Numbered from the stretch's first letter, positions 3,437-40,113 are shown. The stretch: 64,000 bases of DNA from Minisyncoccota bacterium (GCA_041660105.1 JBAZWZ010000004.1:176-64175); one strand, 5' to 3'. Program-made: numbers and translations. Notes: generated by a model not told the origin, from the letters alone.

Positions 3437-4831
3437 TTACAAGTTCTCAATTGGGTCAATCATCGTCGTCTGGATAGTGTCAGCTTTCTGCATAACCTGA
3501 GTTCCATACGTGGAAGCCCATGAGGAATTTGCACAAGAAGAGCCGGAGAAATACTTGCAGGCGGCATTTCTTTCTGCGCTATAAGATGTTGCCACAGCGC
3601 CGTTATCCTTCAAGAGAAAGCCCGCTGCCATAAATGCATCACGTGCAAGCCAAGGGTTTGCTGTAGAAATACCAAGTGCCTTCGTTATACGATTCTCATA
3701 TAGTACCCAAGTCGAAGGGATGAACTGCGCCGGCCCCATCGCCCCGCCATACCCAGAGCTTTGCGGACACGAAACTTGAGTCATAAATGGATCAAGTCCA
3801 AGTCTCTCAGTGATATCCAAAAACGGCTTCACATCTCCAAGGTTTGGATTATTCTTGCGCATTACTGCCATCACTTTTGCAAATACTTTACCCGTGTTCT
3901 TACCCACACCAGCGCCCGTCAGAGGGTCCTTGAGATAACACGATCCTTGATTCTTGCCAAAGCCTGACTCCTGCATAAATATAGCGAGGAGGAACGCAGG
4001 GCGCACGCCTGTCTTCAGGGAAACTGTCTTCGCATAGTCATACGCCTGACCAAACTGGATCTCGCCCGTGTCGCGGAGAGCGAAGAGTGCAGCACGAATC
4101 TGTGAGGCCTTTGCCTTCTTTTCTTTCAAAACTTTTTGATAAAGTGCCTCTTGCCCCTTTGTCACTTTCAACAAACGCGCCTTTTCTTTCTCCTTTGAAG
4201 TCAAGGACGCTTGTTCCACTTCCTGCGCGTGCTTCAAGTCCATTTCTTTATTCTTTTTTTCTTCGAGGGTTGCTTTCGCCTCCTCGGTCGTCTTCTTTGC
4301 TGCGCTCACAATATCAAGCGAGTCCCCTATCGCGTCTTCAATATATTCAAAATTATCAAGGTCACTAAAAAAATCAGAAATATTTTTATCAGAAAGTGCC
4401 ACCTCAATGAGAGAGGATGAATCGATTTCATTGGTACGACGAAGGAGCCCCGCCAGAGACTCGTGTTCCGAATCTATTTTTGCGGAATATTTAACAATGG
4501 TTTTATTTTTTGAACCAATATCCTCAGTGAGCTTTGCAATGGAAATTTGCTGCGCTTTGATTTGAAGTTTCGCTTTTTGAATTTGTGCGGTAAGTATCGC
4601 CATATCACGTTCGAGAGAAACCCCTTCTTTTTGTTTGCTCTCAAGCAAAGTGGTTTGAAGTTTAATCTCATTCTCCACCGAAGCCAGATCCGCCTCAAGC
4701 GCTGCCTGACAAACATTGTCTCCGGGGATGCAGGATGATACGGTCTGGGCGCTGGCAAAAGAAAAAATCTTTAAAGCAAAGGCTAAAAGAATTATGACAG
4801 TGAGGATTTTCCCTAAGATACTTTTGGGCAT
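3437..4831 (-). CDS. Secreted coiled-coil protein with C-terminal lytic transglycosylase domain (MltB/family-3-like)
   Basis: Signal peptide; long coiled-coil region; C-terminal ...MQESGFG... and GAMGPAQFIPSTW, which resemble lytic transglycosylase catalytic motifs. Confidence 0.7.
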   Translation of the reverse strand: MPKSILGKILTVIILLAFALKIFSFASAQTVSSCIPGDNVCQAALEADLASVENEIKLQTTLLESKQKEGVSLERDMAILTAQIQKAKLQIKAQQISIAKLTEDIGSKNKTIVKYSAKIDSEHESLAGLLRRTNEIDSSSLIEVALSDKNISDFFSDLDNFEYIEDAIGDSLDIVSAAKKTTEEAKATLEEKKNKEMDLKHAQEVEQASLTSKEKEKARLLKVTKGQEALYQKVLKEKKAKASQIRAALFALRDTGEIQFGQAYDYAKTVSLKTGVRPAFLLAIFMQESGFGKNQGSCYLKDPLTGAGVGKNTGKVFAKVMAVMRKNNPNLGDVKPFLDITERLGLDPFMTQVSCPQSSGYGGAMGPAQFIPSTWVLYENRITKALGISTANPWLARDAFMAAGFLLKDNGAVATSYSAERNAACKYFSGSSCANSSWASTYGTQVMQKADTIQTTMIDPIENL

Positions 4832-28544: not shown

Positions 28545-28985
28545 CTAAATCTTTTCCAAAATTCTCACAAGATTCAAGCTTGTCATCCAGCCATACTTAT
28601 TAAAGAATTCCAGCGCAATAGAATACATCTCTTTATTCTTATCATCAGAAGCATTCCGTATTGAATTCTCAAGGTCTACCCCACTATTTTCTTTGCTCAT
28701 GTTGAATAAATTATGCAAACCAACAATGCGCATATCTTTTGGGAAAGTAGCGAGTTCCTCAATAAGGTTGAAGTCTTCTGAATTGATACTCCTTGAAACT
28801 ACGAACTTTTTTACTTCATCCGTTTCTAAAACAGAAAGTATATTTTCAGTAATCGCGGGTTGTTCAAATTTATTTTCCACAGCATTTCTTGTACTTCTTG
28901 CCGGAGCCACATGAACAAAGTTCGTTGCGACCTGTTTTGTCGGACTTGAGCGGTGAAGCCGTTGATGCCTCGTCTTCCCCACCAC
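28545..28985 (-). CDS. Hypothetical protein (N-terminus overlaps the secA 3' end by ~115 nt; the true start may be internal)
   Basis: 146-aa ORF. The overlap with secA suggests the functional start is further downstream, or that the ORF is not real. Confidence 0.3.
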   Translation of the reverse strand: MVGKTRHQRLHRSSPTKQVATNFVHVAPARSTRNAVENKFEQPAITENILSVLETDEVKKFVVSRSINSEDFNLIEELATFPKDMRIVGLHNLFNMSKENSGVDLENSIRNASDDKNKEMYSIALEFFNKYGWMTSLNLVRILEKI

Positions 28986-31332
28986 CGATTTCTATAGCCT
29001 TTTTTACTATCTCTTTTGCTTTTTCTTCTTCCTTTATAAAAGCTCCAGCGCCAATAGCGGGCACGAGACGAAGGATTTCGTTTTGCACCGACTCTTTCAT
29101 CTCACGGAAGAGGCGCATACCTTCTTTTTTGTACTCGACAAGTGGGTCACGCTGGCCATATGCACGGAGATTTACTGACGACTGCAAGTACTGCATTGCA
29201 TCCAAGTGTTCCATCCACATCATATCAACCACCTGCAAAATGAGACGTTTTATAGCGCTGTAGAATTCAACCTCACCAAGTGCGACAACCTTATCATCGA
29301 CTTGCTTAGTAAGCTCAGGGTTCTCTGCCACGATACTGGTGAGATAATTTTTTGCAGCTTCGATATCTCCCATGAGAATCTCGCGGCGCATCCCATACAC
29401 ATATTCACGCTGCTTGGTCATCACATCGTCATACGAGAGCACGTGCTTGCGTGAGTCGAAATGAAACCCTTCTATTTTCTGCTGTGCTGTCTCAAGGGAA
29501 CGAGAAATCATTTTAACCTGAATAGCCTCATCTTCGGGGAGCCCAAGCTTCCCCATCATGTTTTTCACCACATCTGATGCAAAAACACGCATAAGGCTGT
29601 CTTCCATAGATACAAAGAATTGCGTCTCTCCTGGGTCACCCTGGCGTCCCGCACGGCCACGGAGCTGGTTATCTATACGACGCGCTTCATGACGCTCAGT
29701 ACCGAGAACGAAGAGTCCTCCAAGTGCCTTTATCTCCTCCATTGACTCTGGGGTAGATGGGTTTCCGCCGAGCTTGATGTCTACACCACGACCTGCCATG
29801 TTGGTTGCGATGACCACGCTTCCCTTGCGACCCGCCTGCGCTACGATCTCACTTTCACGCTCGTGATTCTTTGCGTTCAAAACTTCGTGAGGAACATTTT
29901 CTTTTTTGAGGTACTCAGAAAGAAGCTCGTTCTTCTCGATAGAAACCGTACCGATGAGTACTGGCTGACCCTTTGCATTAAGCTCCATTACCTTACGTGC
30001 GATCGCTTTAAACTTGCCGTTCTCTGTCTGATAGATGAGATCAGTCTGGTCAATACGTGCCACCGGGCGATTGGTTGGAACAGGAGTTACTTCGAGTCCA
30101 TATACTTTATAAAATTCTTCACTAGAAGTTTCTGCGGTTCCCGTCATGCCCGCAAGCTTGCCGTAGAGACGGAAATAGTTCTGAAATGTAATAGACGCAA
30201 AAGTGCGAGACTCTTGCTGAATCTTCACACCCTCTTTTGCTTCGACTGCCTGATGAAGCCCCTCTGACCAACGACGTCCCGGCTGGAGGCGCCCGGTAAA
30301 CTCATCTACAATAATGGCCTCGCCGTTTTGAATCACGTATTCTTTGTCACGAATAAAGAGCGCCTGTGCACGCACTGCGGTCTCCAAGTGATGCACGTAT
30401 TTCACCCCACGCTCGGTATAAATATTATCAACACCAAGAAGCTCCTCCGCACGGTTGATACCCTCTTCGGTAAGCTGAATAGCCTTGAGCTTTTCGTCGA
30501 CGGTATAGTGTTCCTCTACTTTGAGCTTTGCAGCAATGCCTGCAAAAACAGTGTATAAATTCTCTGCGTCACCAAAAGGTGCAGAAATAATAAGTGGGGT
30601 ACGAGCTTCGTCGATTAAGATAGAGTCGATTTCGTCTACAATAGCGTAGTTGTATTCACGCTGACAGAGATCAAGCGGGCTGTACGCCACATTGTCACGA
30701 AGATAATCAAAACCAAATTCATTATTCGTACCATACGTGATGTCAGCACGATACGCCTCTTGTTTTGAACAAGGACGCATAAACTCACTGATCACCTTAA
30801 ACGAACCAAGCTCATCACGCTCTGCATCGAGCTCTTGATGGTTAGGGTCATAAAGAAACGAGGACATATGATTGAGCACGCCCGTAGAAAGTCCGAGTGC
30901 ATAATAAATCTGACCCATCCACGTTGCGTCACGACGTGACAAATAGTCGTTCACGGTCACGACATGAACACCCTTTGAGGTAAGGGCATTCAAATACGCT
31001 GGCAGGGTTGCGACAAGGGTCTTCCCTTCTCCCGTCATCATCTCGGCAATCTTGCCCTGATGAAGTGCTATACCTCCCAAAAGCTGCACATCATAATGGC
31101 GCTGCCCGAGGGTGCGGTGCGAAGCTTCGCGCACACAAGCAAAGGCCTCTGGGAGAATATCATCCAAAGTTTCGCCTGCGGTGAGGCGTGAGCGGAACTC
31201 ATCCGTTTTCGCCTTGAGTTCCTCATCCGAAAGAGCCTGGAGCGCAGACTCAAAACTATTGATTTTCTTCACAATGGGCGCGTATTTACCCGCAACCCCA
31301 CTACCCTTGAATATATTTTCTAGAAATGACAT
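28870..31332 (-). CDS. secA: Preprotein translocase ATPase SecA
   Basis: 820 aa; DEAD-like motor domains; C-terminal zinc-binding tail CSCGSGKKYKKCCGK. Confidence 0.95.
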   Translation of the reverse strand: MSFLENIFKGSGVAGKYAPIVKKINSFESALQALSDEELKAKTDEFRSRLTAGETLDDILPEAFACVREASHRTLGQRHYDVQLLGGIALHQGKIAEMMTGEGKTLVATLPAYLNALTSKGVHVVTVNDYLSRRDATWMGQIYYALGLSTGVLNHMSSFLYDPNHQELDAERDELGSFKVISEFMRPCSKQEAYRADITYGTNNEFGFDYLRDNVAYSPLDLCQREYNYAIVDEIDSILIDEARTPLIISAPFGDAENLYTVFAGIAAKLKVEEHYTVDEKLKAIQLTEEGINRAEELLGVDNIYTERGVKYVHHLETAVRAQALFIRDKEYVIQNGEAIIVDEFTGRLQPGRRWSEGLHQAVEAKEGVKIQQESRTFASITFQNYFRLYGKLAGMTGTAETSSEEFYKVYGLEVTPVPTNRPVARIDQTDLIYQTENGKFKAIARKVMELNAKGQPVLIGTVSIEKNELLSEYLKKENVPHEVLNAKNHERESEIVAQAGRKGSVVIATNMAGRGVDIKLGGNPSTPESMEEIKALGGLFVLGTERHEARRIDNQLRGRAGRQGDPGETQFFVSMEDSLMRVFASDVVKNMMGKLGLPEDEAIQVKMISRSLETAQQKIEGFHFDSRKHVLSYDDVMTKQREYVYGMRREILMGDIEAAKNYLTSIVAENPELTKQVDDKVVALGEVEFYSAIKRLILQVVDMMWMEHLDAMQYLQSSVNLRAYGQRDPLVEYKKEGMRLFREMKESVQNEILRLVPAIGAGAFIKEEEKAKEIVKKAIEIGGGEDEASTASPLKSDKTGRNELCSCGSGKKYKKCCGK

Positions 31333-31362: not shown

Positions 31363-31469
31363 CTAAAGGGCCCGCTTTGAGGCCCCAAAGCGGGCCCTTT
31401 AGTACATAGGTCGGACCTATGTGAAAGAACGAATACGAAAATCCCACTCCTTTGCAGGAGTGGGATTTT
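31363..31469. promoter_or_regulatory. Three consecutive strong hairpins in the secA 5' leader region
   Basis: Perfect inverted repeats: 17-bp stem CTAAAGGGCCCGCTTTG (31363..31402), a 17-nt palindrome CATAGGTCGGACCTATG (31405..31421), and a 13-bp stem AAAATCCCACTCC with loop TTTGCA (31438..31469). Confidence 0.5.
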
Positions 31470-31481
31470 CGTAAAAGCGTA

Positions 31482-31868: not shown

Positions 31869-32894
31869 CTAACTTAATACCACCACCTCTTCTTCAAGCA
31901 TCACATTTGTTTTTTCTTTGATATCTTTTTTAATTTCTTGCGCAAGCGAAATCATTTCTTCTGCGGTCGCATTACCATAGTTCACAAGGATGAGTGCTTG
32001 CTTTTCGTGTACTCCTGCGTCGCCCTTTCTATATCCGCGCCACCCGCCCACGTGGTCGATGAGCCACGCCGCAGAAAGCTTAACGCTATTACCCCCTTGT
32101 ATATACGCCTTCATTTCAGGATATTGCTTTTTAAGCCCTTCATAGGTTGCCGTATCCACTACAGGATTTTTGAAGAACGACCCCGCGGAGCCAAGTGGTA
32201 ATGCTGGCATCTTTGCCGTGCGTATCGACACGATTGCCTCGTGAATTTCTAGAAGCGCTGGCTCACCAATTTTTCTATCAGCAAAATATTTCTTAACGTC
32301 TTCGTAATTAATATTTGGCTCACCATCGCGCTTGAGCTCAAATATTACGCGGAGCACAATCAAATTTTTGTTTTTCTTAAAAATACTTTCTCGGTAACCA
32401 AATTCGCAATTTGCTTGCAAAAAAGTTTTTATTTGCATTTTTTCTATATCGAGAGCTTCCACTGAGAAAATAGTCTCTCGTGCTTCCACTCCGTATGCTC
32501 CGATATTTTGCACAGCTGCCCCACCAACTGTTCCCGGGATGAGTGATAAATTTTCTACTCCCCACAAGTTGTGTGCAACCACATCGCGCACCACATCATC
32601 CCACCACTCACCTGCTTGCACAGTCACACGAGTGCCTTCGTATGAGATTCCTTTTATTTCTATCTTGATAACCAGCCCATCAAAACCCTCTTGCGAAACG
32701 AGCGTATTTGCACCACCCCCAAGGATGCAGATTGGCAACTTTTTTTCCCGCGCCCACAACACCGCTTCCGAGAGTTCCTCAACGTTCGTCACGCGCACAA
32801 AAAACCGCGCATTCCCACCCACGCGCATCGTAGTAAGTGGCGCCAGTGGTACTTGTTCTAATATATTTAGAGCCATATTAAGTATGATAACCAA
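31869..32894 (-). CDS. murB: UDP-N-acetylenolpyruvoylglucosamine reductase
   Basis: FAD-binding PCMH domain (GGGANTL, VENLSLIPGTVGGA) and the MurB C-terminal domain. Confidence 0.9.
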   Translation of the reverse strand: MVIILNMALNILEQVPLAPLTTMRVGGNARFFVRVTNVEELSEAVLWAREKKLPICILGGGANTLVSQEGFDGLVIKIEIKGISYEGTRVTVQAGEWWDDVVRDVVAHNLWGVENLSLIPGTVGGAAVQNIGAYGVEARETIFSVEALDIEKMQIKTFLQANCEFGYRESIFKKNKNLIVLRVIFELKRDGEPNINYEDVKKYFADRKIGEPALLEIHEAIVSIRTAKMPALPLGSAGSFFKNPVVDTATYEGLKKQYPEMKAYIQGGNSVKLSAAWLIDHVGGWRGYRKGDAGVHEKQALILVNYGNATAEEMISLAQEIKKDIKEKTNVMLEEEVVVLS

Positions 32895-32929: not shown

Positions 32930-33772
32930 CTATTTTTTGAATGGTATTGTTTCGAGAAGTGTCAATTTGCCTGTTGCTCTGTCGTAACTCCAAAGTTCTT
33001 TGTCGGAAATTTGAGTGTAGTCATGAACCTCAGTTCCCTCAGCATAATATGATGTAAGCTCAATTGTATTACCAACAAAACGGTATGCTCCAATAATATT
33101 GTCTACTAACCCCTTATCATGCCATGTTGTTGCACTTTGATGATCTGACATATATTGTTCCACATTACCAGGCCTCTCAAAAGTAACTGATCTTTTGGGA
33201 TCGACTAAATCGATGATACTAAAGTAAGTCTTAGATTTCTTGTAGATATTAGGATTAACGTCATAGCTCATAAGGCTCAAACTTAAATTATCTGAAGCAA
33301 ATCTAAATGTTTTAGTAACTATACTATTTCCAGAAAATATTTCCTTTGAAATATTATTTATAATATCTGTTTCATAAATAAACCATTTTCCAGACTGTGG
33401 GTCTGTAGAAACCGAGTGATCAACTAAAACGTACAATTTATTTGTTTGACTATTAAACGCTGCATCTACAACAAATGCATTGTTCCCATATTTGTTTGTT
33501 TCAATTTTGTATACAACTGCTCCAGAACGATCGCCAGTATTCGACATTTTTTTAATGGTTATATATTGACCAATTGGGCCCACCCAATAACCATTATATT
33601 CACCATAAGTGAAGGGCCAATTTTGATTGATCAATTCCTCTTTTGTTATTGAGGTTATGTTGATGTTTTCTATTTGTTTTTTGAGTAAGAATGATTTACT
33701 AGTACAAACAACAACGGCAATTCCTATTACTGCAAACACTGAAACAATTATCACTATGTATTTATATTTCAT
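32930..33772 (-). CDS. Secreted/N-terminally anchored beta-rich protein, unknown
   Basis: N-terminal TM/signal helix, then a 250-aa Tyr/Asn/Thr-rich domain. Co-directional with, and just downstream of, the giant surface protein gene. Confidence 0.5.
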   Translation of the reverse strand: MKYKYIVIIVSVFAVIGIAVVVCTSKSFLLKKQIENINITSITKEELINQNWPFTYGEYNGYWVGPIGQYITIKKMSNTGDRSGAVVYKIETNKYGNNAFVVDAAFNSQTNKLYVLVDHSVSTDPQSGKWFIYETDIINNISKEIFSGNSIVTKTFRFASDNLSLSLMSYDVNPNIYKKSKTYFSIIDLVDPKRSVTFERPGNVEQYMSDHQSATTWHDKGLVDNIIGAYRFVGNTIELTSYYAEGTEVHDYTQISDKELWSYDRATGKLTLLETIPFKK

Positions 33773-33797
33773 AATTTTTTAATTTAATCAACAAACT

Positions 33798-36700
33798 TTA
33801 TTCTCCAAACCTCACCTCTACCACATCCGTCTGAGTTATACCATTCACTGTCGTGGTAATAATGATATTTTCTTGAGCTGCTGTAGTGCCTTGTGGGAAG
33901 AACAACGAGAACTTCGTCTGCTTGCGGTCGTCACCATCACTATGCTCTTCCTCCTGAACCACATTGAGCATGGTGAAGTTTCCAGAGATATTGGTGGTAA
34001 ACGGTACATCCTTCTTGATTCCTGTGACTTTTACCGTAAGTTCTAGTGGTTGTCCTTTCTTGAGTTTCAAGACATCATCTGACTTAAGGAGGAGTGTAGT
34101 ACTGTGAGCGGTATCTTTATACTTGTACTGGAGTTGGGCAGTTTGTTGCTTGTCGTAGATATTAACCGTACTCGTTTGAGACGTTGTTTTATTGGCAACA
34201 GTATTAGTGATACTAAGCGTGATTTCGGCGTTTGCAAACTTGAGTTCTTTTTCAAGTTCGTTTCTTCTCTCGTTGTCTGACTCGTGGTCTCTTTTGTGTT
34301 TAATTGATTCTCTTTCCTTAGTGTTACCTTTTGTAGTAGTAAGGGTAAGAGTATATGTCTTAAGTTCTTTTGTGCTTTGTGGGAAGGAGATAGTAATCAC
34401 ACCGTTTGTGGTAGCAACCGTTGCTGGGACAGTAGCCTCATTACTATCTTTTACTGGAGAATTTCCTACGCGATAGTAAGTGTTGGAAAGATTTAAGGAA
34501 ACATTTCCTCTTCCAGCAACTGAGAATGGCAGATTAAATGAATCCTTTTCCCAGAGTGAATACTCGTCAGGAATAGTGAGATTTGCGAAGACAGTGGTAT
34601 CAAATGGCTTCACATCATCTTGATTTGGGACACCGTCTCCGTCGGGATCTGCCGTGGGACTCGAGTAGACAGTTACCGCAATACTTGAGGTTGCGATGTT
34701 ACCAGCCATATCATGCGCAGTTATCAATATGTTTGTAACCCCTGGGGCAAATGTTTGTGTTAGTGGTTTGTCTGTAGTGAATGTAGAATTAGGATCAATA
34801 CTATCATTAACAGTTACGGGAATAGTTAGAAGTGTACCACTCGAAGTAAGTTGCTCAACAGAGGTATCAGACGCAAAGATAGTTGGAGCGGTAGTATCGA
34901 TTTTGAAATCAAGTGTACTTGTTGCTTCTGTGTTCCCAAAGTAGTCGACTGAGTAATACTTGAGGGTACTAGTACCTTCGGTTGCAATGACGAGCGGGGT
35001 TGAAGTGCTGTAGGTGTTCCATGTAACTCCGTTATCAAGAGAGTACATTGTTTTTTCTACACCTACGCCGTCAATATTATCTACAGCGGTAAGAGCTACT
35101 GATGTTGGACTTGTGTACCAATAATCCACACCTAATGAACCCGAAATAACTGAGGTGGTCATTGGTGCAACTGTATCAGAGAAATTATTACCAACCTGAA
35201 TAGTTTGTTCAGGTGTGCCATCTCCATTTTCATCAACTAACACGGTTACTCCACGCTCTCCCCTTGAGAGCGCATCAGAGTCAACCTTGTAAGTATAGAT
35301 TTCTCCCAATTTAAGTGGGATATTTATTGCTGAAAAAATATTTGATACTGCTCCGTCAACATAAAACGAATACAGCCCTTCCTCAGTTCCTGATACCTTA
35401 TAAGACTCAGTTCCATTCGGGAAGTAAACTTCTGCTTGTTTTCCACTCTTCTGGTCGTAGTATACATTCGGTACATCGTTTTTTACTCCTGTAGTGTTTA
35501 GTCCAGAAGACCTCCCCTCTGAATCAACTATTTCAAGGGTACCTGGACTACAAATAGAAATTGTTTCTTTTTCCTGTGATGCTAGTTTTAATTTTTCTAT
35601 AAAATTATCAGGATTACTATAAGTATCAGAATTAGGGAAAATCGTCTTTATTGTTTCTAGTTTATTTGCAACCTGAGCGAGATAATAAGGCTGAGATTGA
35701 TTATTTAATCTGCGACAAACCTTGTTGCCATTTTCATCATAATACGGATCAGGCCCGAACCCATTGTATCCTCTAACCCCTAAGATTTGCTCCATTTCCG
35801 GTTTTGTAATCTTATAAGTTATGTTGTTTTCATCCAATTTGCCAGTCCAAGTTTCATTTTGTGCAACGTAAGGATTATTATAATAAATATTAAATTTGTC
35901 TCTCAAAACCTTCATACCATCTTTTACGTTAGAAAATATAGACTGTTTTGTATTTGTGTAAAACTTATACAAATATCCATCAGAAGCAGTTTTGTAGGAG
36001 TGAGGAATATTCTTATCTGAATCAGTATAACAGTCTAGATAATTTAAATTATCTAGAGAACATGCAGGCACATCAATACCGCTAGCCACTCCTCGCTTAT
36101 CATAGTCATTCTCTGGTTGTGCGGGGTAATGAGTAGTGGTAACTTGACTAATACCATGACCGAAATCCCTCGCTACATTTTCGTTATCAAAGTCAACAAT
36201 ATCAGACTCATTAGCAAAAATTGCTAAAATGAGCTGTTTTGGGAAATCAGCCAACCGCAAAAGAGAAATATTGTTTGCCCCCTCTTTCCCGAGATTATCA
36301 CTGCTACTAAGAGAAGGGGTTGCGCTTGCGTTTATATAATAATGGTTAACGGCATCAGAAATAAGGTTTGCTCGATCTTCCTTTGTCCCATAAATTTGTG
36401 ATGCTGTATTCTCTAATTCCGTCTGCATACTTGCCTCATACTTCAAATACTCCTGCCCATCGATAAAGTTTCCTGTTGCATTATCAATAACCCCAGCCTT
36501 CATCCAGCCTGTTGTGCCATCGGTCGCATCTCGAACTTGATACCATCGATATGCGATTCCGCCCTCTATAGTTTCAGCATTACTTCCATCTTTCTTTGTG
36601 CTCTTAACCTCAACCGCCCATCCACTAGGAAGCTGCTTTAATTCTGTCGAGGTCGTGTTTGGCAACTCATACATCTTCATAGCTCCCGATTCATTTGAGA

Positions 36701-37604
36701 TTTCTGCCCAAAAATGATCTGGAGTAGCACCACCCTGCGTAACCACCAAATCATCAAAGTAATCAAAGTGTCCCGTCCCCCAACCCCACGGACGGTCATA
36801 TACTTGCATTTGGTAATTGTCTGACACAGGAAGGGCGCCGACGTTTAATTCTGCTTGCTGCGTATCGTTTATTAAATATGTCAACAATCCTGTTGCTGGG
36901 TCATAGGTGAGGGATTCATCAAACCAAGTGTTCCATATTGCGGGAATAATATTACTAATATGTACTCCGCAATAAATACCATTTTGCCAATTTAATCCAT
37001 CATCAAGAAAAAAGCCATAACGAGAGCAGTATGTTCCGTTGTATCCGCTGTAGGAGTTGTTGGCATAATCAACACCAAAATGTTTATCAGGAACTCCGTC
37101 ACCATTGGTGTCAAAAAAGAGCCTGAGGAAGCCATTATAAAATTGGTTTCCAGCGTGCTGCATTGTACGACGACTGACAGTGATTGGATGCGTACCATTT
37201 ACTGGTATCCAGCGCGAAGCGAGGATACCTCCGTTGTCCGTGACGTCTGTACTTACATTCATTTCTCCATTTTGTTCTACGACTCCGTAACCGCTTGTTG
37301 TCCATTTGGTTGGATCAATAGTATTGTCATCAAAATCATCTGAGAAAATTGTATCTACAGAAAGAGAAGTTGAATTCAAAGAAAGCGACGAAAGTCGCAT
37401 TAGTGGGGCAAAAAATGAGGTGACTGCTGACTGAACAGTAGTCGGAGAGTCAGAAGGAGAAGTTGAGGAGGTCTCAACAAACTGCATTGTTGAGGTAGCG
37501 TCAATAGGAGCACTTGATGTTGCCGTTTCCGGCATAATAACCTGCGCAAATGAAACCTGCGGAAATACTAGTAGTAACCCGAGGAGCAAAATAACTTTTT
37601 TCAT
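33798..37604 (-). CDS. Giant (1268 aa) secreted multidomain surface protein: Ser/Thr-rich linker, lectin/LamG-like region, possible lysozyme-like region, Ig-like (Big/CHB_HEX_C-like) domain, HYR-like domain, TSP3-like Ca-binding DxDGDG motif
   Basis: Signal peptide MKKVILLLGLLLVFPQVSFA. A possible lysozyme-like region carries ESD...GISQV. An Ig-like domain carries YSLDNGVTWNTY...YYSVDYFGNTE. HYR-like domain TAPTIFASD...ITAHDMAGN. Calcium-binding motif DPDGDGVPNQDD. Confidence 0.75.
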   Translation of the reverse strand: MKKVILLLGLLLVFPQVSFAQVIMPETATSSAPIDATSTMQFVETSSTSPSDSPTTVQSAVTSFFAPLMRLSSLSLNSTSLSVDTIFSDDFDDNTIDPTKWTTSGYGVVEQNGEMNVSTDVTDNGGILASRWIPVNGTHPITVSRRTMQHAGNQFYNGFLRLFFDTNGDGVPDKHFGVDYANNSYSGYNGTYCSRYGFFLDDGLNWQNGIYCGVHISNIIPAIWNTWFDESLTYDPATGLLTYLINDTQQAELNVGALPVSDNYQMQVYDRPWGWGTGHFDYFDDLVVTQGGATPDHFWAEISNESGAMKMYELPNTTSTELKQLPSGWAVEVKSTKKDGSNAETIEGGIAYRWYQVRDATDGTTGWMKAGVIDNATGNFIDGQEYLKYEASMQTELENTASQIYGTKEDRANLISDAVNHYYINASATPSLSSSDNLGKEGANNISLLRLADFPKQLILAIFANESDIVDFDNENVARDFGHGISQVTTTHYPAQPENDYDKRGVASGIDVPACSLDNLNYLDCYTDSDKNIPHSYKTASDGYLYKFYTNTKQSIFSNVKDGMKVLRDKFNIYYNNPYVAQNETWTGKLDENNITYKITKPEMEQILGVRGYNGFGPDPYYDENGNKVCRRLNNQSQPYYLAQVANKLETIKTIFPNSDTYSNPDNFIEKLKLASQEKETISICSPGTLEIVDSEGRSSGLNTTGVKNDVPNVYYDQKSGKQAEVYFPNGTESYKVSGTEEGLYSFYVDGAVSNIFSAINIPLKLGEIYTYKVDSDALSRGERGVTVLVDENGDGTPEQTIQVGNNFSDTVAPMTTSVISGSLGVDYWYTSPTSVALTAVDNIDGVGVEKTMYSLDNGVTWNTYSTSTPLVIATEGTSTLKYYSVDYFGNTEATSTLDFKIDTTAPTIFASDTSVEQLTSSGTLLTIPVTVNDSIDPNSTFTTDKPLTQTFAPGVTNILITAHDMAGNIATSSIAVTVYSSPTADPDGDGVPNQDDVKPFDTTVFANLTIPDEYSLWEKDSFNLPFSVAGRGNVSLNLSNTYYRVGNSPVKDSNEATVPATVATTNGVITISFPQSTKELKTYTLTLTTTKGNTKERESIKHKRDHESDNERRNELEKELKFANAEITLSITNTVANKTTSQTSTVNIYDKQQTAQLQYKYKDTAHSTTLLLKSDDVLKLKKGQPLELTVKVTGIKKDVPFTTNISGNFTMLNVVQEEEHSDGDDRKQTKFSLFFPQGTTAAQENIIITTTVNGITQTDVVEVRFGE

Positions 37605-37677
37605 ATTAATAACGATGGTGAATAATGAGGAACAGTGAATAATGTAAACTTACGACATTATCCCATTATCAGAAACA

Positions 37678-37722
37678 AAATGAAAGAGCGAGATTGCCGT
37701 AGGTAATCTCGCTCTTTCATTT
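37678..37722. other. 18-bp-stem hairpin (AAATGAAAGAGCGAGATT / loop GCCGTAGG) ~75 nt upstream of the giant gene
   Basis: Perfect inverted repeat, read directly. Confidence 0.4.
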
Positions 37723-37887
37723 CTGCATTCTGCTTTTGACTTTTAGCTTTCAGACTAACCCTCCTGTACTCTTTTGGCCAGCGGGTGCGAGCTCCAACAA
37801 ATGTCTAATATGTGAGTGCAGCCGCTAGCCAAAGGAACACACGAACTTCTATAGTATAGTAAATTTTTAGTAAGCACGCCAGAGAAA

Positions 37888-37917
37888 CAAAAAGCCCCGC
37901 TTTCGCGGGGGTTTTTG
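37888..37917. terminator. Bidirectional rho-independent terminator after the Wzy_C/TPR gene
   Basis: AAAAAGCCCCGC-TTTC-GCGGGGGTTTTTG. Confidence 0.65.
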
Positions 37918-38034
37918 TAGACTTTCGTTGGATGAATCGCACATAGAGTTGCCTCCAGCGCACTCACATAAGGGGATCCTAGCAGATATTAATGGAAAAG
38001 TCAAGCAAAATTAGTTCTTTTCAGCTTTTTAATT

Positions 38035-40113
38035 TTACACCTTAGGAGCTGGGTATTCCTTCAAAATTTTTACCGTTTCTGCATGCTTCCCATTTAACTC
38101 CAATACCTGCAAGTAGAATTTCTTTGCTTCAGGATACTCTGGGGCCAATTCAAATGCACGCTTGAATATCTCTTCTGCTTTTGCGGTATTCTTATTACCA
38201 TAATGAGCATTTCCAAGCTCAAAAAGAATTGATTGCTTCGTAGGTGAAAGTTCCGCTGCTTTATTCAAGTAAACGAGCGACTCATCATACTTTCCTACTT
38301 TTGAAAGGAACGAGCCGGCGAAAAGCTGTGCACGTGCATCAGAGGGGTGCTCAGCCGCTTGTTTTTCAAGTTCACTTTTTGTAAGGAGGAGGAACTGTTG
38401 CTGGATGTCTGATATTCCTTTTGATGAATCAAACGCAGTAGTTGAGAAAGGAGTAAGCTGCTCACGAATCTCGGTCTCCCCCATCGAGTCGTAGGCAAGC
38501 GCATCTTTGAAGAAGGCGAGGTTACGGGCAAGTGATGGATCCGTACGATCGGTCAAACCTTTTATAAATGTAATGTTCTGCATAAACGGACTGTAGTTCA
38601 CGTTATAGAGAAGAACGATTGCAAAAATGAAAGCTCCACCAGAAACCATAAACGTAAGGTCTTCTTTTTCTGCTGCATCCTTTTTAATATTTTTTGATTT
38701 ATTCTCTGCGTTTCTGTCAGTTGTCTGCGAAGCAGTGTCAGTTGTCAGTTGTCCCCTGTTCATTCCCTCAACATACGCAAGTATCATTCCGAAGTAAATA
38801 AGACTCGTGATGTTGTCAAACACAAAAAGATTCTGGAAAAAGTAGCCGCCCAGAAGCCCAGTAAGTACGCTTTTTTCTAAGACACTCAGCTCATCCGTGC
38901 GCCCCGTTAGAGACGGAGCCACGCTGCGACCACTCGCGGTCTCTAACGGGGCAGGTCTCCAAATGTAATAAAGAGACAATCCAAAGAGCGATAAATATCC
39001 GAGCAGCCCGAGCGCACCTCCCGCAACAAGCCAATCAAAGACTACGTTGTGCGCGCGGTCAAACCATTGCTCCTGCGCGTACATATTTGGATCATAGTAC
39101 TTACTGAAAACATACATAAAGTTATCCATTCCCCACCCAAGAATAGGTTTTTCCTTGAACCCTTCATACGCCATACCCCACACCATGAGGCGTGCGTGAC
39201 CTGTGCCTTCTGTTGGAGAGATAGCAGCGAGGCGTGAAAGCACGGGGCTTTGCTGTATGAACGATGCATCGCGAATAGCGATAAATCCACCGACAAAAAG
39301 AATTATCGCAATCACAATACCGATTGCACTTTTTCTAATCAACTTATTATTTTTCTCAAAAATGGCGACAAGAAGTGTAGCGAGACCAAGCCCAGCAATG
39401 AGCCCAAGGATCGCTCCACGCGTACCTGAGTGATATAGCGCAAACGTCTGAAGGATAATTATTAAACCATAGATTACCATACGTATATTCCCACCCGTAG
39501 TGTCTAGCTTTTCACGCACTAAAAGAAACAAAGCAATAAAAATATTAAAGAGCGCGTAGGTACCAAGATACTCAGTGTTACCAAGTGTACCATCAATACG
39601 AATGCCTCCTTGGGAAATTTTGACGTGGCCAGCCCATTGCATCACTCCGATGATTGCCATAATGACTCCCGCAAAAAGATTGAAATTCAAATAAGGTCGC
39701 CAAAATCCGCGCACGGTGAGCACTGTTGATGCCACCACAAAATAAGCGAATAGATGAAAGTAGGTGACCACTCCTTCCATACGCTCGTAGTTGGACCAGA
39801 AACTTTTTGCGGGATCTGCTCCAAAAATAGATGCAAGGGTGATGATACCAACAAATGCTGCAAAAGCGTAAAGAAGATAACTTTTCTTTGGACGATATGC
39901 AGGATCAATTACCGCAAGGACAATCCATGCTGAAAACATTATTTCGACAAGAGCGCGAAACGCAAAATTCTTACCTGTAATAAATGGGAAAAACGTACTC
40001 TGTCCAAGAACAATAAACGGAATAAATGGCACCGCCACGAACCCCGCAAAAACAACCGCATTGGCAAAAAATTTATGTAAATTCATCCCGTTAGAAGTAG
40101 GAAATGCGAACAT
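38035..40113 (-). CDS. O-antigen-ligase-like (Wzy_C) polytopic membrane protein with C-terminal TPR repeats; candidate O-oligosaccharyltransferase
   Basis: More than 10 TM helices with a Wzy_C-like core, then C-terminal TPR units (AKAEEIFKRAFELAPEYPEAKKFYLQVLEL). The true start is probably MNLHKFF (~40086), from comparison with the homologous PMM leader. Confidence 0.75.
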   Translation of the reverse strand: MFAFPTSNGMNLHKFFANAVVFAGFVAVPFIPFIVLGQSTFFPFITGKNFAFRALVEIMFSAWIVLAVIDPAYRPKKSYLLYAFAAFVGIITLASIFGADPAKSFWSNYERMEGVVTYFHLFAYFVVASTVLTVRGFWRPYLNFNLFAGVIMAIIGVMQWAGHVKISQGGIRIDGTLGNTEYLGTYALFNIFIALFLLVREKLDTTGGNIRMVIYGLIIILQTFALYHSGTRGAILGLIAGLGLATLLVAIFEKNNKLIRKSAIGIVIAIILFVGGFIAIRDASFIQQSPVLSRLAAISPTEGTGHARLMVWGMAYEGFKEKPILGWGMDNFMYVFSKYYDPNMYAQEQWFDRAHNVVFDWLVAGGALGLLGYLSLFGLSLYYIWRPAPLETASGRSVAPSLTGRTDELSVLEKSVLTGLLGGYFFQNLFVFDNITSLIYFGMILAYVEGMNRGQLTTDTASQTTDRNAENKSKNIKKDAAEKEDLTFMVSGGAFIFAIVLLYNVNYSPFMQNITFIKGLTDRTDPSLARNLAFFKDALAYDSMGETEIREQLTPFSTTAFDSSKGISDIQQQFLLLTKSELEKQAAEHPSDARAQLFAGSFLSKVGKYDESLVYLNKAAELSPTKQSILFELGNAHYGNKNTAKAEEIFKRAFELAPEYPEAKKFYLQVLELNGKHAETVKILKEYPAPKV
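38901..38950. repeat. 13-bp inverted repeat CCCCGTTAGAGAC...GTCTCTAACGGGG (28-nt spacer) inserted in-frame inside the Wzy_C/TPR CDS
   Basis: Shares the core with the CCCGTTAGAGGT elements at 40082..40210 and 41081..41208. Encodes the loop peptide APLETASGRSVAPSLTG. Confidence 0.5.

Follow-up and report, generated by a model that had tools for sequence, protein, structure and literature searches.

A candidate secreted cell-wall lytic enzyme with an anchored partner, encoded beside a conserved Wzy_C+TPR gene in a Paceibacterota genome

Does the 1268-aa secreted protein encoded beside a Wzy_C+TPR membrane protein gene in a Candidatus Paceibacterota MAG work together with that membrane protein, or are the two genes merely neighbors? 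A first-pass annotation had read them as a possible host-attachment or glycoprotein module, in which a Ser/Thr-rich adhesin would be glycosylated by an O-oligosaccharyltransferase. We analyzed this locus in a window of 64,000 nt (the whole stretch of DNA under study). The CPR origin assumed at first pass was supported by the identity of the protein to an NCBI “Candidatus Paceibacterota bacterium” entry. The three open reading frames were found where they had been placed, all on the minus strand, and the nucleotide-sugar island beside them was also recovered, with ManC, Gmd, epimerases, GT2 and GT11 glycosyltransferases, methyltransferases, DegT, RmlC and a Wzx-type flippase. The initial observation and most of the domain calls were borne out, but a functional module tying the 1268-aa protein to Wzy_C+TPR was not supported. 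The interval is best explained as three separate things, namely the Wzy_C+TPR gene, a two-gene accessory cassette (32930..37604) and a structured RNA, laid out as follows.

38035..40113, minus strand: gene for a membrane protein with Wzy_C and C-terminal TPR (692 aa, conserved Paceibacterota family)
37895..37910, minus strand: terminator-like hairpin CCCCGCGAAAGCGGGG, then a T-run, ~125 nt past the Wzy_C+TPR stop
37755..37875, minus strand: conserved structured RNA, a ~90-nt hairpin recognized by covariation
37678..37722, minus strand: second hairpin with 21-nt arms, 95% complementary, then a T-rich run (from the comparison with locus L007)
33798..37604, minus strand: gene for the “giant” secreted modular protein, a candidate enzyme (1268 aa)
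32930..33772, minus strand: partner gene, N-terminal membrane anchor plus ectodomain (280 aa)
31869..32894, minus strand: murB (context), starting 35 nt past the partner gene

The partner gene starts 25 nt past the end of the gene for the giant protein, no terminator lies between these two genes and murB, and the cassette and murB are probably co-transcribed. The giant protein itself could be divided into the regions below.

37335..37604, minus strand: signal peptide (residues 1-21) and Ser/Thr-rich linker (22-90; 41% Ser+Thr)
36714..37355, minus strand: concanavalin-A-like lectin/glucanase-fold domain, residues 84-297 (AF2 and Foldseek)
36489..36674, minus strand: SH3b-like domain, residues 311-372 (Pfam SH3_3 at 21.8 bits, under the cut-off of 27)
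35505..36482, minus strand: divergent SLT/GH23-like domain (lytic transglycosylase / goose-lysozyme type), residues 375-700 (profile-profile comparison and motifs)
35175..35507, minus strand: family-conserved beta-sandwich, residues about 700-810, with a GDG calcium-type motif at its end (consensus of alignment A2)
34899..35117, minus strand: OmpL47-type beta-barrel (Ig-like), residues 830-902 (NCBIfam NF047446, 52.5 bits, cut-off 40)
34614..34898, minus strand: HYR-like domain (903-979, under threshold) and TSP3-like motif (986-997)
33801..34577, minus strand: C-terminal region, residues 1010-1268, common to the relative P0002 only

The region that had been tentatively called lysozyme-like was supported as such. 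Residues 375-700 define a family of 214 representative clusters, and hhalign matched the family profile to the SLT domains of E. coli Slt70, EmtA, MltC and MltD with a probability of 94.8% and an E value of 5e-8, a call that rests on profile-profile similarity across short motifs. The ES and GLMQ motifs were aligned directly, and a relaxed setting added NI..G..YL and AYNxG with the order kept. The corresponding motifs of the giant protein are ANE466SD, GHGISQ487V, NVKD562G and GY613NG. In 116 family sequences, E466, G482, G484, Q487, K561 and D562 are invariant, while G-Y613-N-G is 92-96% conserved and was aligned to aYNaG only in the low-stringency extension. The Pfam SLT model (PF01464) gave no match in the 1268-aa protein at E<=0.1 and matched 4 of 50 relatives (best E 3.1e-4); among the same 50, PG_binding_1 was found in 2, SH3_3 in 15 and beta-helix in 21. 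A profile search of PDB sequences with the family returned no match. The structural model of the domain is mostly helical, and lytic transglycosylases and lysozymes headed its Foldseek lists without reaching significance (best E 0.63).

Like the family-1 lytic transglycosylases (GH23, PF01464; Slt70, MltC, MltD, EmtA), the domain would combine a mostly helical structure in the model, the motif order Glu-Ser, G-x-M-Q, N-I/V-x-D/x-G...L and Y-N-G, and an association with SH3b and PG_binding domains. It differs from them in having no significant Pfam SLT match, in its length (~300 aa, with a ~60-residue insert between motifs II and III), in its conserved Cys pairs and invariant K-D-G, and in being embedded in large modular proteins that almost always come with a small anchored partner. 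These proteins, which bear modules of the lectin, beta-helix or propeller type, are mostly about 580-1700 aa long (one has 3149 aa). Thiocapsa sp. KS1 is given as the source of one member. An SLT fold could act on chitin-like glycans as well.

The modules in front of the SLT-like domain would deliver and target it. By eye, residues 1-21 (MKKVILLLGLLLVFPQVSFA, followed by Q) look like a Sec signal peptide, and the Ser/Thr-rich linker noted at first pass is present. The region that had been described as lectin- or LamG-like does adopt a lectin fold in prediction. The AF2 model of residues 84-297 (pLDDT 84, pTM 0.83) is all-beta and had 416 Foldseek matches in the PDB at E<=1e-3, led by L-type/legume lectins and GH16 glucanases (TM about 0.6) and including the Emp46/47 CRD and the YwfG lectin domain. 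The LamG label was not supported by sequence, as no Pfam model, LamG and Laminin_G_3 included, matched this region at E<=10 in any of five homologous segments. Reading the sequence by eye, we found no GH16 ExDxxE motif in the domain, which makes a binding module likelier than a glucanase. The SH3b block that follows is conserved in alignment A2.

The giant protein is a mosaic. Residues 294-1183 match P0002 only (56%), whereas residues 10-294 are common to P0003, P0004 and P0005, of which P0003 and P0004 bear lipase (LCAT) or NlpC/P60 domains instead. Behind the SLT-like domain, the beta-sandwich region is common to P0009 and P0004 and, together with the OmpL47-type barrel, bears out the Ig-like domain of the first reading. 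The HYR-like call is weaker (PF02494, 15.5 bits against a gathering threshold of 21.7), but the match spans the whole model, so that an Ig-like fold remains plausible there. The proposed TSP3-like calcium-binding site comes down to a single motif, DPDGDGVPNQDD, with no HMM support.

With a lectin fold, SH3, an OmpL47 barrel and an HYR-like domain, the protein has many binding-type domains, and one could regard it as purely adhesive, the lysozyme-like domain being a catalytically dead, glycan-binding module of a surface attachment protein. GLMQ is indeed degenerate here (GISQ), and Asp rather than Gly follows the ES motif. However, the catalytic Glu, G-x-G-x-x-Q, K-D-G and Y-N-G are invariant or nearly so in the 116 members, the giant protein included, which argues for selection on catalysis. 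Furthermore, neither an LPXTG motif nor a membrane anchor nor a second hydrophobic segment was detected in the 1268-aa protein, so the surface location that had been assumed for it is not supported. We consider the purely adhesive reading very improbable. Adhesin is probably too narrow a term for a protein whose conserved core is an SLT-like catalytic domain; our preferred reading is an enzyme that binds sugars and cuts cell walls.

The second gene of the cassette encodes the 280-aa protein, previously described as secreted. Its single hydrophobic segment lies at the N-terminus and lacks an evident site for cleavage, making the protein likelier to be membrane-anchored than freely released, and its C-terminal part has the motif KELWSYD..GKLTLL. 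A homologue (30% identity, 5e-27) lies directly after P0002 in L091. The association extends across the SLT-like family, almost every member of which has, directly after it, a gene for a small protein that is hydrophobic near its N-terminus; an N-terminal hydrophobic anchor was found in 41 of 48 non-redundant genes directly 3' of family members, the largest group (12/48) resembling the 280-aa protein. The start of the same-strand downstream gene mostly falls between -11 and +20 nt, an ATGA overlap being frequent, and these partners are fast-evolving. No similarity of the 280-aa partner to known inhibitors was detectable, and the literature searched held no counterpart of the conserved partner gene.

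A small cognate gene directly 3' is what one would expect of effector-immunity pairs. The Tge-Tgi pairs of T6SS, such as Tse3-Tsi3, in which the effector is a peptidoglycan glycoside hydrolase (reviews PMC6099711, PMC4832377), resemble the present cassette, as we read it, in placing a gene for a wall-glycan-cleaving enzyme directly 5' of a small, fast-evolving extracytoplasmic partner, and in being accessory and horizontally mobile. Unlike in these pairs, the giant protein would be delivered through a Sec signal peptide and not by T6SS, its partner would sit on an N-terminal helix in a CPR cell not known to have an outer membrane and may be an immunity protein, and the sequences are not similar.

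The 692-aa protein (true start likely Met10 at 40086, according to the 683-aa NCBI call and the homologues) was correctly recognized at first pass, with Pfam Wzy_C at residues 218-374 (2.6e-18) and TPR at 580-685; the topology of the TPR is ambiguous by hydropathy. Homology searches gave 3953 matches, the best at 45-79% identity over the full length, and at least 595 loci among species-representative genomes. No second Wzy_C paralogue occurs within the window. From its sequence we place the protein in the WaaL/PglL/Wzy superfamily, as a membrane enzyme found throughout Paceibacterota and encoded here where a Wzx-dependent glycan island ends. Its most likely action would be to transfer or polymerize a glycan linked to undecaprenyl-PP on the external side of the membrane.

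Protein O-glycosylation is one role to be weighed, and the kinship suggested at first pass has some support. Wzy_C with a C-terminal TPR has precedents in the protein O-oligosaccharyltransferases WsfB (an S-layer enzyme) and PglL and in the WsaA/WsaB pair (PMC2943079). WaaL and PglL need an Arg/Arg/His set (R224, R298 and H349 in NmPglL; PMC3643930), for which R232, R308 and H355 are apparent counterparts in the large loop; with E348, D352 and R353 they are invariant in alignment A1 (35 homologues), and their spacing is 76/47 versus 74/51 in NmPglL. A direct alignment to E. coli WaaL placed R232 and R308 consistently but was not significant. PglL_A (PF15864), which separates PglL from WaaL, had no match in the protein at E<=0.1; it is also missing from PilO (PMC3643930), which leaves O-oligosaccharyltransferase activity possible, and sequence thus separates a PglL-like enzyme from an O-antigen ligase weakly. 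Neither waa nor lpx genes were present among the annotated neighbors, no S-layer gene was identified, and no pilin-like N-terminus was found in the window. CPR bacteria, Paceibacterota included, are not known to have LPS, hence a lipid A-core acceptor for a WaaL-type ligase, a difference from WaaL that would favor a protein acceptor.

From such evidence one could argue that Wzy_C+TPR, as a PglL/WsfB-type enzyme, decorates the Ser/Thr linker of the adjoining surface protein with glycans of the island, whose Wzx flippase, glycosyltransferases and sugar-nucleotide genes adjoin it. PglL-type enzymes act on flexible low-complexity segments (PMC3643930), which a linker with 41% Ser/Thr resembles. 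In the distant locus L044, a secreted lectin+fn3 protein occupies the same slot. Gene neighborhoods, however, pointed the other way. The order conserved in Paceibacterota is glycan island, Wzy_C+TPR, (murB), secA, a synteny with no description for known PglL/WaaL members. Of 57 usable loci, 51 have secA on the same strand 3' of Wzy_C+TPR, and 36 have murB there. Apart from murB, secA and glycan genes, Wzy_C+TPR has no conserved protein-coding neighbor and no conserved adjoining substrate gene; PglL-type genes lie next to the gene of their acceptor protein in 21 of 31 cases (PMC3643930). Relatives of the 1268-aa or 280-aa protein were present in none of 86 related loci, for which 20-kb stretches were covered, so that the cassette family could occur elsewhere in those genomes. 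Among these loci, the adjacency is peculiar to the present genome. The sole other copy of the gene pair (L091) is on a 5.5-kb contig with neither Wzy_C nor murB.

Between Wzy_C+TPR and the 1268-aa gene, 430 nt contain an RNA gene and the strong terminator-like hairpin at 37895..37910, a block conserved in relatives that parts Wzy_C+TPR from the downstream genes. In relatives, a median of 808 bp (268-2957) separates Wzy_C+TPR from the conserved gene that comes next; here the gap is 5141 bp. Homology with L007, the nearest relative, breaks at ~37683 and ~32877; it stops at the second hairpin (37678..37722), the border of the inserted cassette on its upstream side. The composition of the cassette is foreign: its two genes have GC3 values of 0.27 and 0.35, whereas Wzy_C+TPR, murB and secA lie at 0.42-0.48. 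The slot is filled elsewhere by AbiEii, an IS200-type transposase, an MFS transporter or unrelated secreted proteins, as seen in other genomes. Our best reading is that the cassette was inserted by chance beside a widely conserved glycan transferase, in a variable slot between the RNA element and murB, and hence that the predicted enzyme and Wzy_C+TPR make no dedicated glycoprotein module. As an O-oligosaccharyltransferase role is also not distinguishable from that of a polymerase or ligase, we regard the glycoprotein module as quite unlikely. A general O-glycosylation system modifying the Ser/Thr linker among other substrates is possible.

The slot is bordered by a by-product of this analysis, a covariation-supported RNA at 37755..37875 that has no Rfam family. 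It has 25 pairs, with compensatory changes in 17, and an invariant apical sequence, GCACUCA...UUGGAGCUCGC. Paired cells reach 95%, compared with 38-46% when the structure is slid, 0 of 500 shuffles matched it, and the MFE z-score is -4.3. A covariance model found one sense-strand copy in the window and in each of 42 related loci, about 17 of which were outside the seed, and none in 557 kb of unrelated loci. In relatives, the element abuts or overlaps the murB start, normally right after Wzy_C+TPR; here the inserted cassette separates the two.

What, then, might the cassette do? With somewhat better than even confidence, we favor an acquired, Sec-exported cell-wall lytic enzyme with an immunity or anchor partner, probably directed at a host wall and separate from both Wzy_C+TPR and the RNA. 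The first gene product would leave the cell by the Sec route, its Ser/Thr linker carrying the lectin and SH3b domains that may dock on a glycan or peptidoglycan surface. With Glu466 as catalytic acid, the SLT-like domain would then cut peptidoglycan in its beta-1,4 glycan strands, and the Ig-like domains would serve as spacers. The second product, held on the producer membrane by its anchor, may neutralize or hold the enzyme (immunity or docking).

Lytic transglycosylases are classic self-acting “space-makers,” and the enzyme could instead be a housekeeping autolysin that remodels the peptidoglycan of its producer to allow growth, division or the passage of a pilus, with the partner regulating or activating it within a shared murB wall operon. 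The tight spacing of the three genes fits such a role, as do the peptidoglycan binding generally seen with SH3b and PG_binding_1, the pilin-like genes after family members in L097, L127 and L130, and the histidine kinases upstream of them in L093 and L094. Yet the equivalent position in the 86 related loci has no cassette, the GC3 of the cassette is atypical, and its adjacency to murB is accounted for by an insertion hotspot. The N-terminal targeting modules are also very variable across the family (lectin, beta-helix, propellers), the lectin module is common to lipase and NlpC/P60 enzymes, and fast partner evolution is commoner in conflict systems. We consider an autolysin unlikely, while giving it some weight. 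Separately, the probable co-transcription of the cassette with a wall-synthesis gene counts against a non-self target.

For the lytic enzyme that we favor, the likeliest target would be the wall of a host or neighboring cell and not the producer's own, a suggestion that leans on the lectin module shared with LCAT lipase and NlpC/P60 proteins. Host-envelope-degrading enzymes have been proposed for the predatory or epibiotic Patescibacteria Vampirococcus and Absconditicoccus (PMC11665869). The present case is like theirs in that a secreted enzyme of lytic-transglycosylase type is predicted in a CPR organism and its N-terminal module recurs in sister proteins that have lipase domains, and differs in belonging to another CPR lineage, Paceibacterota, and to a catalytic family outside Pfam. 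The first-pass view of the large protein as a candidate for host interaction is supported, with a predicted role that may be to open the wall of another cell.

The first-pass annotation had placed a secreted protein of 1268 aa and a Wzy_C+TPR membrane protein beside a large nucleotide-sugar island in a CPR genome. All three ORFs concerned were found on the minus strand with exactly the coordinates described, and the 1268-aa protein is identical to WC791_02285, a hypothetical protein of a Candidatus Paceibacterota bacterium, so the CPR assignment is correct. The locus is laid out as follows:

38035..40113, minus strand, ORF of the 692-aa Wzy_C+TPR protein
33798..37604, minus strand, ORF of the 1268-aa predicted cassette enzyme
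32930..33772, minus strand, ORF of its 280-aa partner, p280
31869..32894, murB, downstream of p280
28870..31332, secA, after murB

Annotation of the window placed a HAD/PMM-like gene, manC and gmd before Wzy_C+TPR, and the island is genuine, with glycan genes filling 40-64 kb. These include a NUDIX gene, a GDP-sugar epimerase, Gly_transf_sug, GT2 and GT11 transferases, FkbM and further methyltransferases, nucleotidyltransferases, dehydratases, DegT, RmlC and a Wzx-type flippase. The first ATG of the Wzy_C+TPR ORF (window 40086..40113) gives nine extra residues without counterpart in the 683-aa NCBI call; the homologues all begin MNxxK and lack these residues, and the true start is probably 40086. 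Between murB and secA, 536 bp apart, stands a very strong terminator-like hairpin with a stem of 18 bp (window 31434..31473, minus strand), so secA, though its synteny is conserved, is apparently transcribed on its own.

The Wzy_C+TPR protein (Pfam Wzy_C, 2.6e-18, with C-terminal TPRs) gave 3953 matches in a homologue search; the best 120 of these were full length, at 44-82% identity, and their named sources were Patescibacteria only. At least 595 loci were found in a scan of species-representative genomes, and all 80 loci kept were from Patescibacteria. A gene-neighborhood comparison combined with a tblastn survey of 86 loci uncovered a fixed order, in which glycan genes are followed by Wzy_C+TPR, a short variable slot, murB (when present) and secA. 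Of the 57 loci that extend 4.5 kb or more beyond Wzy_C+TPR, 51 have secA and 36 have murB downstream on the same strand. The next conserved gene lies a median of 808 bp away (range 268-2957), compared with 5141 bp in the window.

What occupies the slot varies. We found an AbiEii toxin in two loci (L003, L004) and ORFs of matching length (211-214 aa) in five (L008, L011, L013, L022, L086), an IS200-type Y1 transposase in L007 (12728-13402), an MFS transporter in L056, a metalloprotease-like secreted protein in L001 and L019 and, once, an unrelated secreted Laminin_G_3+fn3 protein (L044, 12406-14265). The slot between Wzy_C+TPR and murB is an insertion hotspot. In GC3 the two cassette genes (0.35 and 0.27) lie below Wzy_C+TPR, murB and secA (0.42-0.48). 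Nucleotide homology to the nearest relative, L007, extends from Wzy_C+TPR as far as ~37683 and picks up again inside murB, at 32877; these breakpoints mark the limits of an insertion. Direct repeats generated by insertion were searched for around the cassette and none was convincing.

The proposal that Wzy_C+TPR and the big protein form a glycoprotein module, with the former acting as its O-oligosaccharyltransferase, did not hold, as tblastn found relatives of neither the 1268-aa nor the 280-aa protein in any of the 86 Wzy_C+TPR loci. The Wzy_C gene is a conserved landmark and not a partner of the 1268-aa protein; since it is fixed by synteny beside an insertion hotspot, adjacency is no evidence for such a module, and in its pure form this is the least supported reading. 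It is possible that the Ser/Thr linker of the big protein is O-glycosylated by Wzy_C+TPR as part of general glycosylation.

Seven residues are invariant in an alignment of 35 Wzy_C+TPR homologues (R232, R294, R308, E348, D352, R353 and H355). E. coli WaaL (R215, R288, H338) and Neisseria PglL (R224, R298, H349) have three residues in common (Schulz et al., PMC3643930), and R232/R308/H355 are spaced like this trio (76/47 vs 74/51 in NmPglL). The hhalign comparison of the family with E. coli WaaL was not significant; its alignment puts R232 and R308 on R215 and R288. The PglL_A signature (PF15864), which distinguishes PglL from WaaL and which PilO also lacks (PMC3643930), was absent from Wzy_C+TPR in a Pfam scan. 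C-terminal TPRs have been reported for WsfB and PglL, and the TPR protein WsaA adjoins WsaB (PMC2943079). Hydropathy is ambiguous as to the membrane side that the TPR domain faces, and a search of the window for a further Wzy_C paralogue found none, leaving this gene as the sole copy there. CPR bacteria are not known to have LPS, which makes a WaaL-type role unlikely; Wzy_C+TPR may act as a protein O-OTase, as a polymerase, or as a ligase with some other acceptor.

Identity to related genomes is 80-90% over the non-coding stretch 37761..37973, vs 65-77% for the flanking coding DNA. Two elements lie in this stretch, the hairpin RNA taking up its downstream half; copies of that RNA in other loci are listed last:

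37895..37910, minus strand, terminator-like G+C-rich hairpin with a T-run, ~125 nt past the Wzy_C+TPR stop
37755..37875, minus strand, hairpin RNA of ~90 nt with strong covariation and the invariant apex GCACUCA...UUGGAGCUCGC
12112-12232 in L007, 9390-9509 in L011, 7153-7270 in L047 and ~40 other loci, further copies of the hairpin RNA

RNAalifold predicted 25 pairs from 22 copies of the hairpin RNA, 17 of them with compensatory changes. Pairing is found in 95.1% of cells, vs 38-46% with the partners slid; the covariation score is 0.487 vs at most 0.12, and none of 500 shuffles reached the pairing and covariation values. A covariance model recovered one sense-strand copy in the window and in each of 42 related loci, ~17 of which were outside the seed, and had no match in 557 kb of unrelated loci. 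In L066 the match falls on the opposite strand; in every other locus the copy comes after Wzy_C+TPR. In the window it folds at -37.8 kcal/mol (z-score -4.3). Rfam gave no family for the whole window or the intergenic region, and no tRNA was found.

In most loci the murB alignment starts within ~60 nt of the RNA 3' end, and in several (e.g., L047, L040 and L078) the inferred murB start codon falls inside the 3' arm of the basal stem. The hairpin lies ~370-730 nt upstream of secA in eight loci that have no murB, and in the window and L007 insertions have parted it from murB. It is a reasonable hypothesis that the RNA would be a cis-regulator of murB that sequesters the start site. The alternative is an independent small RNA. 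A second conserved non-coding block (37876..37973, minus strand; 84-87% identity in L003, L013, L020 and others) lies upstream of the hairpin RNA. It contains the terminator-like hairpin, is preceded by a promoter-like site (38004..37976), and may be a separate short transcript.

The 1268-aa protein itself reads as a mosaic around a predicted enzyme core, the parts of which are:

N-terminus, Sec-type signal peptide, then a linker with 41% Ser/Thr
residues 84-297, lectin/glucanase-fold domain, a predicted all-beta sandwich (pLDDT 84)
residues 311-372, sub-threshold Pfam match to SH3_3, recurring in relatives
residues 375-700, predicted SLT-like core
residues about 700-810, beta-sandwich conserved in the SLT-like family
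residues 830-902, OmpL47-type barrel, score above cut-off
residues 903-979, HYR, score below threshold
residues 986-997, single TSP3-like motif
C-terminal 260 residues, no assigned domain, no LPXTG, no anchor

The first-pass observation is thus sound: its Ser/Thr-rich linker, its lectin-like region (in the model), its lysozyme-like region (as the predicted core) and its Ig-like domain (as an OmpL47-type barrel) all reappear, while its HYR-like domain scores below threshold. The model of residues 84-297 matched 416 PDB chains at E<=1e-3, the top ones being L-type and legume lectins and GH16 enzymes; Pfam had no match for this region. A GH16-type glucanase was rejected, as the ExDxxE motif is missing, as was LPXTG sorting, for want of that motif. 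A PDB sequence search with the whole protein gave nothing usable.

A full-length homologue search matched eight other proteins only. One, P0002, covers residues 294-1183 (56%). Its gene, on contig L091, is called with a stop at 3962, and in the interval 3962-4217 the next ORF (57 aa) matches the C-terminus of the window protein, so the gene is interrupted by a stop or frameshift, or the assembly is in error. P0003, P0004 and P0005 share N-terminal residues 10-294 only; P0003 has an LCAT-type lipase domain instead of the core, P0004 has NlpC/P60, and P0005 lies in a non-CPR-looking genomic context. The N-terminal module alone as query gave no matches, although the full-length query had found these three, which we ascribe to a word-index limit.

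An exhaustive HMMER search with residues 375-700 gave 214 representative clusters, of which 153 reach E<=1e-10. The consensus of 116 aligned domains reads ...aiaaqESg..FdNE.vs.DyGhGimQiT...YKqY.Nt.QsIYANiKDG...wGYNG..., and E466, G482, G484, Q487, K561 and D562 are invariant across all of them. Among 50 full-length members, Pfam detected Beta_helix/NosD in 21, SH3_3 in 15, SLT in four (best 3e-4) and PG_binding_1 in two. The SLT domains of E. coli K-12 Slt70, EmtA, MltD and MltC were taken from the annotated genome and aligned; hhalign matched them to the family profile with a probability of 94.8% (E 5.1e-8), with the ES and GLMQ blocks aligned and, at a relaxed setting, also the N-I-x-x-G...L and A-Y-N-x-G motifs in the same order. 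A PDB sequence-profile search with the central-domain profile gave no match. Structural support is only suggestive: with the AF2 model of the core (pLDDT 74, pTM 0.78), Foldseek ranked MltD first in the PDB (E 0.63, not significant), and Slt, goose-type lysozyme, P1 Lyz and PRD1 transglycosylase followed, none significantly. We conclude that residues 375-700 probably belong to the lysozyme-like/SLT superfamily as a divergent member whose catalytic Glu is intact.

No family member was found in IMG/VR viral contigs, leaving a phage lysin origin unsupported, and neither the enzyme and its partner nor proteins closely related to them matched PHROGs. One member (P0165 / P0284) is attributed to a proteobacterial record, Thiocapsa sp. 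KS1; either the family reaches beyond CPR or that assembly holds foreign contigs. On two unrelated contigs, histidine kinase genes lie upstream of SLT-like members (L093, 4383-5993; L094, 2901-5068), with a response regulator also upstream in L094 and the kinase gene of L093 ending 8 nt before the enzyme gene; expression may be regulated there.

The partner p280 has an N-terminal hydrophobic helix by hydropathy and no Pfam match, and its profile found no relative in the PDB. Immediately behind P0002, contig L091 encodes a full-length homologue of p280 (30% identity, E 5e-27); neither Wzy_C nor murB is on that contig. Small-protein genes likewise follow SLT-like members in L093 and L094, their start codons overlapping or nearly abutting the enzyme gene. 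A metagenome scan added 71 family loci, and 41 of the 48 non-redundant same-strand genes immediately downstream encode an N-terminal hydrophobic segment. Gaps between enzyme and partner are mostly -11 to +20 nt, with a frequent ATGA overlap. The partners are very diverse; the largest cluster, p280 included, has 12 of the 48 and a common C-terminal motif, KE(L/I)WxYD..K.YTLL. In four loci (L097, L098, L127 and L130) the gene after the SLT-like member has, in place of the common anchored partner, a type-IV-pilin-like N-terminus (FTLLELL or SLLELLL), which hints at a tie to pilus or pseudopilus systems in some lineages.

The cassette is best read as belonging to a divergent, unannotated family of lytic-transglycosylase type, enzyme plus partner, and has landed in an insertion hotspot beside a conserved glycan transferase. 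It combines a Sec-type N-terminus, carbohydrate-binding-type modules and a conserved SLT-like core with a near-obligatory small anchored partner; it behaves as an accessory, insertion-like element, and its lectin module is common to lipase and peptidase enzymes. From these features we infer that the enzyme would be exported and dock on a glycan or peptidoglycan surface, where it might cut the glycan strands of the wall, and that the partner would shield the producer's surface from the enzyme or tether it there; the target would be a host or neighboring cell. Such a mechanism agrees with the damage to host envelopes that has been proposed for patescibacterial lytic transglycosylases and phospholipases (PMC11665869), and the cassette is similar to peptidoglycan-hydrolase effector-immunity pairs (reviewed in PMC6099711, PMC4832377). 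The strongest competing reading is an autolysin that acts on the producer's own wall, is co-transcribed with murB and has a membrane regulator. The position of murB after p280 would suit it; the insertion-like behavior would sit more easily with the exported enzyme and its partner.

Taken jointly, a possible but rather doubtful reading is a Sec-dependent effector-immunity pair, by which an ultrasmall Paceibacterium would open host peptidoglycan with a secreted, lectin/SH3-guided and highly divergent lytic transglycosylase, its own wall shielded by a cognate membrane-anchored inhibitor. The ~200-cluster enzyme-plus-partner family would then be an unrecognised wall-breaching arsenal that needs no injection machine, and the RNA, which normally overlaps the murB start, a new cis-regulator of peptidoglycan precursor synthesis whose site also serves as a hotspot where cargo of this kind is inserted.

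Work on the CPR envelope has two obvious candidates here: the conserved Wzy_C+TPR gene, in a lineage generally regarded as LPS-free, and the RNA with covariation support at the start of murB. In seeing a host-interaction candidate here, the earlier interpretation was right in spirit. Lytic transglycosylases and lipases have been proposed to act in CPR host feeding and are hardly characterised (PMC11665869). What is new is a catalytic family missed by standard annotation, the window protein having no Pfam or PDB sequence match for it; the shuffling of targeting modules, with one lectin module also carrying lipase and NlpC/P60 enzymes; and, as a testable hypothesis, an enzyme with a cognate anchored partner. 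These points bear on the means by which an episymbiotic CPR cell opens a host cell and feeds on it.
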